NCBI RefSeq assembly: GCF_003334355.1
Contig: NZ_QOWP01000013.1
Length of the DNA stretch: 64,000 nucleotides
From: Escherichia coli
GTDB lineage: Bacteria > Pseudomonadota > Gammaproteobacteria > Enterobacterales > Enterobacteriaceae
Direction: 5' to 3' (one strand)
Shown here: positions 53,253 to 62,465 of the stretch, piece after piece
Numbering within the stretch: position 1 is the first letter of the stretch
Layout: each line of letters opens with the position of its first letter
Program-made: the position numbers and the translations under genes
Notes under the pieces: generated by a model
What the model was told of the DNA's origin: nothing
Database searches by the model: none
Seen by the model: the letters and a program-made list of their open reading frames with translations, nothing else

Positions 53253-53786
53253 TCATTCATCTCCTTGTTGGGTAAGGAGTCTTTCGTAGAGGTGGGCGTT
53301 TTCTTCATCATAACAGACAAAGTATACCTGTTCGGGTAAAGCGTGACGGGTAATAAATTCTGAAACGGTTTTTACTGCGATTTCAGCCGCTGCCGCACGA
53401 GGGTAACCATAAACCCCAGTACTGATTGCAGGAAAAGCCACTGACGTATAGCTGTTTGCCGCCACCAGTCGTAGGCTATTGAGATAGGCATCCTGCAAAA
53501 GCTGGTCTTCGTTTTGTTCACCACCACGCCAGACTGGCCCGACGGTGTGCACTACGGCTTTAGCGGGAAGATCGCCTGCAAGCGTAATAACGGCATGCCC
53601 CGTAGGGCAATCGCCCTGCTGTTGCCTGACTTTTAAACAGGCATCCAGTAGGGCCGGACCCGCTGCGCGATGAATGGCCCCATCGACGCCGCCACCTCCC
53701 ATTAATGAAGGATTAGCCGCATTCACAATCACATCAACGGCCAGTTTGGTAATATCACCCTGCACAACATGAATACGCGTTTTCAT
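53253..53786 (-). CDS. ymdB: Macrodomain O-acetyl-ADP-ribose deacetylase
   Basis: 177-aa macro-domain ORF ([25 protein letters not shown]...). Confidence 0.94.
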
Positions 53787-53880
53787 AACGCCTCCTTACA
53801 CCTTCTTGTTTCTTAAGTGTACAGCAGGCTTTTTGGTTAAATCGCATTTTTCTACTCAGCAACGTGAGTTGTTCAGAAAC

Positions 53881-54645
<765 letters not shown>

Positions 54646-54703: not shown

Positions 54704-55159
54704 TTAGTACTGATGAGCGGTCGCGTTGTTACCAAAGCCAACCTGAGTCACGTTGACGGAGGAGTTAGATGCAGTCTGGTCAACTGCAGCACCGTTGCCA
54801 CCACCGAACTGTTTAACCGTCATTTCAGAATTTTTGCCGTTCCACTGATCAAGAGTAGCGCTGTTACCGAAGCCACGTTGGGTCAGATCGATTGAGCTGT
54901 CATCTGAGCCCTGACCAACATCTGCACCATTACCGCCGCCATGCTGGGTAATAGTCAAGTCAGAGTTACGGGCATCAGTTTGCAGAGCAAGTGCAGAGTT
55001 ACCGCCACCGTACTGGTAAATGTTCAGCTCAGAATTTGGGCCGCTATTATTACCGCCACCACCGTGGTTACCGCCGCCGCCGTACTGAGGAACAACACCT
55101 GCCAGAGCGCTACCGGAGAATACGATTGCTGCAATTGCTGCTACTTTTAAAAGTTTCAT
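54704..55159 (-). CDS. csgA: Major curlin subunit
   Basis: 151-aa ORF with five imperfect Gln/Asn/Gly-rich repeats (S-x5-Q-x-G-x-G-N-x-A). Confidence 0.96.
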   Translation of the reverse strand: MKLLKVAAIAAIVFSGSALAGVVPQYGGGGNHGGGGNNSGPNSELNIYQYGGGNSALALQTDARNSDLTITQHGGGNGADVGQGSDDSSIDLTQRGFGNSATLDQWNGKNSEMTVKQFGGGNGAAVDQTASNSSVNVTQVGFGNNATAHQY

Positions 55160-55199: not shown

Positions 55200-55655
55200 T
55201 TAACGTTGTGTCACGCGAATAGCCATTTGCGACTGTCTCTGCACTACAATTGCCGTTTTTTGAGTACCATACTGTGTAATATTTGCTTTATTACCAGAAC
55301 CTTTCTGGATAATCATCGCAGTATTACCATAAGCACCTTGCGAAATACTGGCATCGTTGGCACTGCCCGCCTGATCAATATATGCAAGGTTATAATCTCC
55401 TGTCTGGTCAATCTTTGCCCGGTTGCTACTACCTTCTTGCGCAACAACCGCCAAAAGTTTTGAGCCTCCCTGCCGTAACTGAGCACTATTATTAGTCCCA
55501 GCTTGACCAATTATGGCTGCCTGATTAAATGAAGACTTACTCAATTCATTTACCGCGAAGTTATATTCTGAATTAGCTAAATCATAACCTGCTGCGGCTG
55601 CAATCCCAGGCGCACCCAGTATTGTTAACATCATAAATAACAATTTGTTTTTCAT
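55200..55655 (-). CDS. csgB: Curlin nucleator subunit
   Basis: Start placed at MKNKLLFMMLTILGAPGIAAA to give 151 aa; curlin repeats. Confidence 0.93.
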   Translation of the reverse strand: MKNKLLFMMLTILGAPGIAAAAGYDLANSEYNFAVNELSKSSFNQAAIIGQAGTNNSAQLRQGGSKLLAVVAQEGSSNRAKIDQTGDYNLAYIDQAGSANDASISQGAYGNTAMIIQKGSGNKANITQYGTQKTAIVVQRQSQMAIRVTQR

Positions 55656-56409
55656 GTTGTCACCCTGGACCTGGTCGTACATTTAAGAAATTAAATCATT
55701 TCAACTTGGTTGTTAACGCAACCTGTATTTTGTTAACGCTGCGTTACGATGGAAAGTATGTCTGCGGAAATATTTTTAATAACTCACCCGCGCGTTGTAT
55801 TTTTCTTTTTTAGTTCATACCAAAGTATTAAAACCCACGTAAATACGCTGTTATCTACGCAAAAAAATATTTTGTTTTCTTTTAAATCTCCGTTTTCCGC
55901 TATCAAAAAGCACCAGACAGTCATTCTTCTTGCCCGTCGCTGATTGCTGCGATATGTCTTGCGCACAAGCCGTGACAAACCTCGTCTTTTTGCAGTAAAA
56001 AATTGTCCACGGAGGTGTGGAGAAAAAACAAGAACGTTTTACATGACGAAAGGACTACACCGAAATATTTTTTATATGCATTATTAGTAAGTTATCACCA
56101 TTTGTATGATTTTTTAAAATTGTGCAATAAAAACCAAATGTACAACTTTTCTATCATTTCTAAACTTAATAAAACCTTAAGGTTAACATTTTAATATAAC
56201 GAGTTACATTTAGTTACATGTTTAACACTTGATTTAAGATTTGTAATGGCTAGATTGAAATCAGATGTAATCCATTAGTTTTATATTTTACCCATTTAGG
56301 GCTGATTTATTACTACACACAGCAGTGCAACATCTGTCAGTACTTCTGGTGCTTCTATTTTAGAGGCAGCTGTCAGGTGTGCGATCAATAAAAAAAACGG
56401 GGTTTCATC
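55656..56409. promoter_or_regulatory. Divergent csgBAC / csgDEFG intergenic control region
   Basis: 754-bp AT-rich spacer between divergent csgB and csgD starts; known hub for OmpR/CpxR/IHF/H-NS/RpoS input and sRNA targeting of the csgD leader. Confidence 0.8.
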
Positions 56410-57060
<651 letters not shown>

Positions 57061-62041: not shown

Positions 62042-62465
62042 TATTTAAAAAAAAGCCCGTACGAAAGTACGGGCTTTTTTTTCGTATATTGCACACACCG
62101 GGGGGGATGAGAAGCCCCGACCGGGGGTCGACAACTGGCGACAGCCAGTTGGACAGACCGTGAACGCAGTGAGCGGGCTGCCCGCAGGGCGAGCGAAGCG
62201 AGTCAATCCCCCCCTCACCGCCATATTTAAAGAAGAGCTCGTACGAAAGTACGGGCTTTTTTTTCGTATATTGCACACACCGGGGGGATGAGAAGCCCCG
62301 ACCGGGGTTCGACAACTGGCGACAGCCAGTTGGACAGACCGTGAACGCAGTGAGCGGGCTGCCCGCAGGGCGAGCGAAGCGAGTCAATCCCCCCCTCACC
62401 GCCATATTTAAAGAAGAGCTCGTACGAAAGTACGGGCTTTTTTTTCGTATATTGCACACACCGGG
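62023..62465 (+). repeat. Tandem direct repeat (~181-182 bp period, about 2.4 copies), each copy beginning with the last 19 nt of tRNA-Ser
   Basis: aatccccccctcaccgcca occurs at 62023, 62205 and 62386; each is followed by a near-identical terminator hairpin and structured spacer; copies differ by a few substitutions and a 1-nt G-run length change. Confidence 0.9.
62047..62082 (+). terminator. Symmetric rho-independent terminator after serX
   Basis: aaaaaaaa-gcccgtac-gaaa-gtacgggc-tttttttt perfect hairpin with A/T runs on both sides. Confidence 0.85.

Follow-up and report, generated by a model that had tools for sequence, protein, structure and literature searches.

Is the intergenic region between csgB and csgD in this Escherichia coli genome simply the known curli control region, or does it hold a sequence difference with possible consequences for curli regulation? 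Here, we analysed a 64-kb stretch of DNA (the window) in which this region occupies positions 55656..56409 (unstranded). We are almost certain that it is the canonical divergent regulatory spacer of csgBAC and csgDEFG, K-12-like save for a G>A exchange at position −13 relative to the csgD start codon. This control region is thoroughly characterised and already known, and the allele found here is one base away from the reference. As it is a textbook regulatory hub, finding the region adds nothing new; its only value here is the genotype record of a rare −13A and a rare amino acid exchange in CsgD, N105I.

Identity and composition of the csgB–csgD spacer

The borders of the spacer are set by two divergent genes. 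On the minus strand, the coding sequence of the curli nucleator csgB (55200..55655) has its true start at MKNKLL, in line with the K-12 annotation, its start codon being the complement of 55653-55655. On the plus strand, the open reading frame of csgD (56410..57060) begins with the ATG at 56410. The gap between both genes therefore comprises 55656-56409, i.e. 754 bp. Beyond csgB, the open reading frames translate to CsgA and CsgC, followed by YmdA and YmdB, and beyond csgD to CsgE, CsgF and CsgG. In the annotations of K-12 MG1655 and of PSS-12 (NZ_AP027697.1; isolated from human faeces in Ecuador), csgB and csgD flank the equivalent position as well. Open reading frames and both annotations thus describe one and the same curli locus, a divergent csgB/csgD pair with csgAC and csgEFG outside, and no result spoke against this assignment.

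Aligned to K-12 MG1655, the spacer has the equal length of 754 bp, a figure also stated in the literature for the csgB–csgD spacer (PMC12713406), and is identical at 753 of the 754 positions. The initial annotation had described a 754-bp divergent control region of the curli operons between csgB and csgD, and we can confirm both the exact extent, from the start codons, and the assignment, from the flanking genes and the K-12 identity. It had further pointed to small indels or substitutions relative to the reference as worth checking, and here the alignment gave a divided answer: there are no indels, and there is a single substitution, G>A at 56397. The view that an allele identical to the reference would be unremarkable is accordingly almost, but not fully, applicable, as one base differs. 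The K-12 region has the same flanking genes, and its promoter elements, transcription factor boxes and sRNA sites are unchanged with respect to the window; it differs at 56397 alone, where it carries G. Among 5426 complete E. coli genomes, the spacer is present in 5372, nearly always with at least 95% identity, and PSS-12 is the only one with a spacer identical at 754/754 positions. The window and PSS-12 also have CsgD N105I in common, and over the whole 64 kb they differ by about 20 substitutions.

Two further descriptions, that of the largest intergenic spacer in the window and that of a very AT-rich one, hold as well. In the annotation of PSS-12, a near-identical and collinear genome from which we read the ranking of gaps, the spacer is followed in size by rluC-rne (572 bp), mdoG-mdoC (393 bp) and tRNA-Ser-ycdU (374 bp). 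The GC content of the spacer is 34.4%, compared to 50.6% for the 64-kb window. Only 39 of 6325 stretches of 754 bp scanned in the window have an equal or lower GC content, the lowest of them (0.333, start at 55561) overlaps the spacer, and the local minimum of 0.23 is reached at 56100-56299. The claim of phased A/T tracts, by contrast, had to be given up. The spacer contains 26 runs of at least four A or T, and we compared its AA/TT periodicity with that of dinucleotide-preserving shuffles, which is a simple test. For the whole spacer, the AA/TT power at 10-11.25 bp was reached by 53% of the shuffles; in the two promoter-proximal parts, it was weakly raised, with about 11% of the shuffles reaching the observed value. 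As the periodicity does not exceed that of the shuffles, we dropped helical phasing of the A/T tracts as a demonstrated feature. Intrinsic curvature of the curli control region has been reported (PMC12713406).

Is the architecture of the spacer shared beyond E. coli? For this comparison, we used the csgD loci of 80 Enterobacteriaceae species, in 76 of which csgB could be located. Salmonella and other Enterobacteriaceae have the same divergent arrangement of csgD and csgB (agfD-agfB), and the spacer measures 733-802 bp in 74 of the 76 species. Conservation among them extends to the csgD promoter block, the sRNA site of the leader, its stem-loop, the Shine-Dalgarno (SD) sequence and the csgB promoter block, and in the 76-species profile the conserved blocks coincide with published promoter and sRNA sites.

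Promoter elements upstream of csgD

Upstream of csgD, the promoter block at 56096-56265 is conserved in the cross-species profile. On its plus strand, the −10 hexamer TAGATT (56251..56256) lies within the invariant block GCTAGATTG. The likewise conserved sequence GTTACATTTAGTTACATGTT (56203..56222, unstranded), centred at −49.5, is what we take to be the OmpR box, in line with the established position of this site. Further upstream, an unstranded MlrA-type palindrome, AAAATTGTGCA-N12-TGTACAACTTT (56116..56149), extends from −146 to −113 relative to the csgD transcription start, and its right half is invariant across species. This is presumably the MlrA site of the csgD promoter, which Ogasawara et al. 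are reported to have located there in 2010. The spacing between these elements is tightly kept: the OmpR box and the −10 hexamer are 35 bp apart in 58 of 59 species, and the MlrA half-site and the OmpR box 75 bp apart in 52 of 60.

The palindrome AACCTTAAGGTT (56173..56184, unstranded) is the MqsA site, described as lying 78 bp upstream of the csgD start (PMC4894380); this distance agrees with a csgD start at 56262. From the published MqsA and MlrA distances, together with the 5′ end of the ES056 transcript (PMC4676190), we infer a csgD transcription start at about 56262. Taken together, the distances of the −10, OmpR, MqsA and MlrA sites agree on a start at 56262 or 56263. All four sites lie at their published distances and are identical to K-12; the published elements are all present because the spacer equals K-12 at these sites. 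A generic sigma-70 scan of the spacer returned two matches, compared to a mean of 3.6 in shuffled sequences, and neither of them is the csgD promoter, which made the scan uninformative. That such a scan misses the csgD −10 hexamer is expected for a sigma-S- and activator-dependent promoter with a poor −35 element.

Regulation of this region by OmpR, MlrA, IHF, H-NS, CpxR, Hfq and sRNAs has been reported (PMC12713406, PMC6061853, PMC3535384), and the 754-bp region and its regulators have been described repeatedly (PMC12713406, PMC6061853, PMC3465796, PMC3985669, PMC3535384, PMC4894380). In the published model, transcription of csgD would be set by many transcription factors together with the nucleoid proteins H-NS and IHF, and translation of CsgD and decay of its mRNA would be governed by sRNAs; CsgD would then switch on csgBAC from the minus-strand csgB promoter.

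The csgB side and the central spacer

On the csgB side, the profile of 76 species reveals a conserved block at 55730..55830 (minus strand), proximal to the csgBAC promoter. From its position and established knowledge, the block would be the csgB promoter. Within it, at 55755..55760 on the minus strand and in a part conserved in at least 95% of the species, we find the hexamer CATACT, a candidate csgB −10 element. Slightly further upstream of csgB, the strongly conserved minus-strand sequence CGGGTGAGTTA (55780..55790) forms a putative CsgD box. Brombacher et al. are reported to have given the CsgD-box consensus as CGGGKGAKNKA in 2003, and CGGGTGAGTTA, read from 55790 to 55780, presumably fits this consensus. 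The SD sequence of csgB is also conserved in the cross-species profile. As a side observation in the csgB leader and promoter area, TTGTTAACGC occurs as a direct repeat within 55708-55739, once at 55710 and once at 55730. The copy at 55710 sits in a small palindrome, GGTTGTTAACGCAACC; strong cross-species conservation is confined to the copy at 55730.

Between the two promoter regions lies a poorly conserved central spacer (55830..56090, unstranded), into which IS1 has inserted in other strains. Over these roughly 260 bp, the mean identity to the window is only about 0.2-0.6 across species, and the sequence is barely alignable between genera. Small open reading frames of 47-64 amino acids within the spacer were rejected as genes because they are sited in this non-conserved middle. 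Is the length of this part nevertheless constrained? The CsgD box and the MlrA half-site are 355-368 bp apart in 69 of 75 species. Their distance spreads continuously over this range and shows no steps of about 10.5 bp, which gives no evidence for a phase constraint, and a helical-phase constraint on the spacer length was therefore rejected. The near-constant distance and the spacer length rather suggest a constraint on length than on helical phase. Alternatively, the constant length could simply reflect few indels.

The csgD leader and the ES056 match

With a transcription start placed by the 5′ end of ES056 and the MqsA and MlrA distances, the 5′ untranslated leader of csgD covers 56262..56409 on the plus strand, i.e. 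about 147-148 nt. This leader is an established target of sRNAs and Hfq (PMC6061853, PMC3465796, PMC3985669). Three features identify it in the window: a match to an Rfam family, complementarity to McaS and RprA, and covariation in 11 of the 18 base pairs of a stem-loop.

The Rfam family RF02752 ('ES056 sRNA') matches the plus strand at 56263..56354 over its full length (model positions 1-92 of 92) with 119.7 bits, compared to a gathering score of 43, and E = 1.6e-22. Could the spacer thus encode an independent small RNA gene, beyond a leader? The strength of the match and the RNA-seq data that define ES056 as a 92-nt transcript from the csgD start site (PMC4676190) would speak for such a gene. 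Its coordinates point elsewhere, as the match begins at the csgD transcription start and lies entirely within the csgD leader. Moreover, the source paper describes such transcripts as having no Rho-independent terminator (PMC4676190), and we predicted no terminator-like site of its own on the plus strand near 56354. According to the literature, truncated 5′ fragments of csgD arise when RNase E cleaves in response to sRNAs or when transcription terminates prematurely (PMC6061853, PMC3465796). We therefore consider a separate ES056 gene very unlikely. In our reading, the match covers the first 92 nt of the csgD mRNA leader: it resembles ES056 in its full-length agreement with the model and, unlike a separate gene, is part of the csgD leader here. 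A search of the spacer against Rfam at E<=1 returned no other structured RNA besides ES056.

Further downstream, the plus-strand sequence ACUACACACAGCAGUGC (56312..56328) is complementary to GCACUGCUGUGUGUA of McaS and UGCUGUGUGUAGU of RprA, as judged from the MG1655 sRNA sequences, and is conserved in at least 95% of the species. It corresponds to the distal leader site common to McaS, RprA and GcvB (PMC6061853). The leader segment 56316-56350 is conserved across species as well. It is followed by, and partly overlaps, a conserved stem-loop at 56330..56380 (plus strand), for which RNAalifold on 22 species gave 18 base pairs, 11 of them with compensatory double changes; this structure matches stem-loop II, the target helix of OmrA/B (PMC6061853).

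The 3′ end of the leader holds an A-tract and the SD sequence. On the plus strand, a run of eight A (56390..56397) takes the place of the seven A followed by G in K-12, and this single-stranded A-tract is described as the Hfq-binding Site II (PMC6061853). The SD core GGGGU follows at 56399..56403 (plus strand); it is predicted to pair with the 16S 3′ end and appears as GGGG or GGAG across species. Salmonella and Citrobacter have GUGGAG where the window has GCGGGG. At or near the csgD SD, pairing of RydC, RybB, RprA (site II) and McaS (site 2) has been reported (PMC6061853, PMC3985669, PMC3465796); according to the literature, the A-tract and SD region of the leader would be bound by Hfq, RydC and RybB.

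A single substitution beside the Shine-Dalgarno sequence

The only difference of the spacer from K-12 falls into this short segment. At 56397 (plus strand), 13 nucleotides upstream of the csgD ATG, the window carries A and K-12 carries G, so that AAAAAAAGCGGGG in K-12 reads AAAAAAAACGGGG in the window, and AAUAAAAAAAGCGGGGUUUCAUCAUG around this position becomes AAUAAAAAAAACGGGGUUUCAUCAUG. The exchanged base forms the 3′ edge of the A-tract, directly 5′ of the GGGG of the SD sequence. How frequent is this allele? Based on exact matches of a 57-nt probe centred on 56397, −13A is found in 3 of 5332 complete E. coli genomes, namely PSS-12, E21845/O/A and A21005-2. The latter two share another spacer haplotype with seven further differences from the window. 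With −13A on two haplotypes, the allele arose at least twice or was moved by recombination. Among the 80 species, 62 have G at −13, 16 have A, and C and T occur once each; A is the normal base in Buttiauxella, Leclercia and others.

As the 3′ ends of A-runs are error-prone, one may ask whether the difference at 56397 arose through faulty sequencing or assembly of a homopolymer. The exchange is, however, a substitution that preserves the length of 754 bp and no indel. The same allele is present in PSS-12, in the two other complete genomes and in independent read-based assemblies, and the assembly of SRR3823860 matches the window without a single difference over 6651 bp. An error is hardly credible in view of this recurrence across independent assemblies, and we rejected it.

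Does the exchange alter the expression of CsgD? Its effects calculated in silico are small and ambiguous, and −13 G>A would most likely be neutral or nearly so. The competing explanation is that −13A is functional and would alter how CsgD is translated, or how Hfq and sRNAs (RydC, RybB, RprA site II, McaS site 2) control this translation, and would thereby shift the threshold for curli and biofilm formation in this lineage. It could then act as an attenuating step in curli decay or compensate for CsgD N105I. Taking the points below together, we regard a functional −13A as somewhat unlikely.

The position itself would favour a function, since −13 sits at the junction of A-tract and SD, at the edge of the reported Hfq Site II and beside the SD at which sRNAs are reported to pair (PMC6061853, PMC3985669). 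On the other hand, the ARN pattern of the A-tract is kept, with AGC turned into AAC, and the length of the A-run is itself polymorphic in E. coli, being A7G in K-12 and A8G in FDAARGOS_497. The population data are similarly two-sided. In E. coli, G is maintained in all but the three genomes among 5332, and the rare A is found on two different spacer haplotypes. However, A at −13 is the natural state in 16 of the 80 species, and an exchange from G to A that extends a homopolymer plausibly marks a mutational hotspot; the recurrence of −13A would then not require selection.

The predicted energetics of the leader differ little between the alleles. The minimum free energy is −41.9 kcal/mol with A and −42.7 kcal/mol with G, with an essentially equal structure and SD pairing, and −13 falls into an unpaired linker of the consensus leader fold. 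The predicted energy for opening the SD is 8.97 with A and 9.17 with G, leaving its accessibility almost unchanged. Leader structure and SD accessibility thus speak against a functional effect. The strongest predicted difference, and a point in favour, concerns the duplex between the mRNA and the 16S 3′ end, which is weakened by 1.9 kcal/mol, from −9.5 (G) to −7.6 kcal/mol (A). This weaker anti-SD pairing with A arises because G at −13 extends a bulged AAG(C)GGGGU duplex, a pairing which may not form on the ribosome. We also compared both alleles with RNAduplex for RydC, RybB, RprA and McaS against the region from −35 to +15. The RydC duplex differs by just 0.3 kcal/mol (−21.4 for A, −21.7 for G), and the duplexes of RprA, RybB and McaS need implausibly long internal loops, which again does not support a functional exchange. 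As these long internal loops and pairing to terminator stems dominate the calculations, we discarded the RNAduplex comparison as evidence either way.

The genomic background of the carriers could also hint at a function. In two of the three, an insertion sequence disrupts a curli gene (csgA::IS1203 in PSS-12, csgD::IS1B in A21005-2), although three genomes are too few for an association with IS disruption. In addition, sublineages with I105 carry either −13A or another exchange upstream of csgD, G>A at 56108, which creates a TATAAT. Natural point mutations of the csgD promoter that alter the rdar and biofilm phenotype are known from Salmonella (PMC11278976, PMC6611641), and variation of this kind is why the initial annotation had flagged the region. 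They are likewise single-base changes in the csgD control region; however, they lie in the promoter and their effects were measured, whereas the exchange at 56397 lies in the leader beside the SD and its effect is predicted only. Overall, near-neutrality of −13A remains the reading that we prefer.

CsgD N105I and the lineage

The csgD gene at the right border of the spacer differs from K-12 in its coding sequence as well. Codon 105 (ATT at 56722-56724) encodes isoleucine in place of asparagine. Asparagine occupies this position in 75 of 80 Enterobacteriaceae species, the rest having H, T or S and none I, and N is also found at position 105 in the structure of the regulatory (receiver) domain of Salmonella CsgD (5XP0). 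In 5316 complete E. coli genomes, the I105 allele occurs once, in PSS-12, and the exact I105 protein is present on about 20 contigs of a larger assembly collection. Judged from this conservation, CsgD, the master biofilm regulator, may have lost or changed its function through N105I. We also considered a second protein change, S19P, and rejected it: at codon 19 (56464), K-12 has S and the window has P, a residue found in 80 of 80 species and exactly in 2084 genomes. P19 is the ancestral state, and it is K-12 that carries the derived allele S19.

Other assemblies with I105 have G at −13 and carry instead a G>A exchange at 56108, which converts GTATGAT to GTATAAT. The new sequence is a perfect −10 hexamer that sits roughly 154 bp ahead of the csgD start and shortly before the MlrA palindrome.

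Is this lineage losing its curli switch? One could speculate that it is remodelling or losing the switch stepwise, with N105I arising first, followed by differing mutations upstream of csgD and, in some members, by an insertion sequence in csgA; −13A would then measurably affect how CsgD is translated or how Hfq and sRNAs control this step, compensating for or adding to N105I. We hold this scenario to be unlikely. The pattern of variants is compatible with stepwise remodelling or decay, but the genomes concerned are far too few to establish it. At the sequence level, −13A and N105I are candidates for altered curli regulation, nothing more. If either of them is functional, it would help to predict the biofilm phenotype of the strain. 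The leader variant, if functional, would moreover offer a natural mutant for how ribosomes, Hfq and sRNAs read the junction of A-tract and SD in csgD.

Insertion sequences and neighbouring differences

The window is collinear with PSS-12 save for the IS1203 in csgA of PSS-12 and one copy of a repeat of about 182 bp. The csgA gene is interrupted in PSS-12 and intact in the window, where csgC, csgA and csgB are identical to K-12. The IS1203 of PSS-12 lies at the window equivalent of 54820-54830, and the assembly of SRR31599417 breaks at the same point in csgA, with IS sequence at the contig end. In A21005-2, csgD is truncated by IS1B after about codon 78.

Insertions also occur within the spacer itself, where at least nine complete genomes carry an IS1 between csgB and csgD. 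Two of these cases were examined (VTB97420v and EC2), and the elements are at different sites and in opposite orientations. In VTB97420v, IS1 has inserted at about 55890-55900 in the central spacer; in EC2, it is found at 56115-56122, splitting the left half of the MlrA palindrome.

The 6.7 kb around the curli locus hold 17 differences from K-12, of which 13 are concentrated in a 500-bp stretch outside the spacer, at 53640-54130 (ymdB-ymdA); this looks like a small recombination patch. The repeat mentioned above is located at 62205-62284 near tRNA-Ser; its copy number (about 182 bp per copy) in PSS-12 and in many further genomes deviates by one from that of the window.
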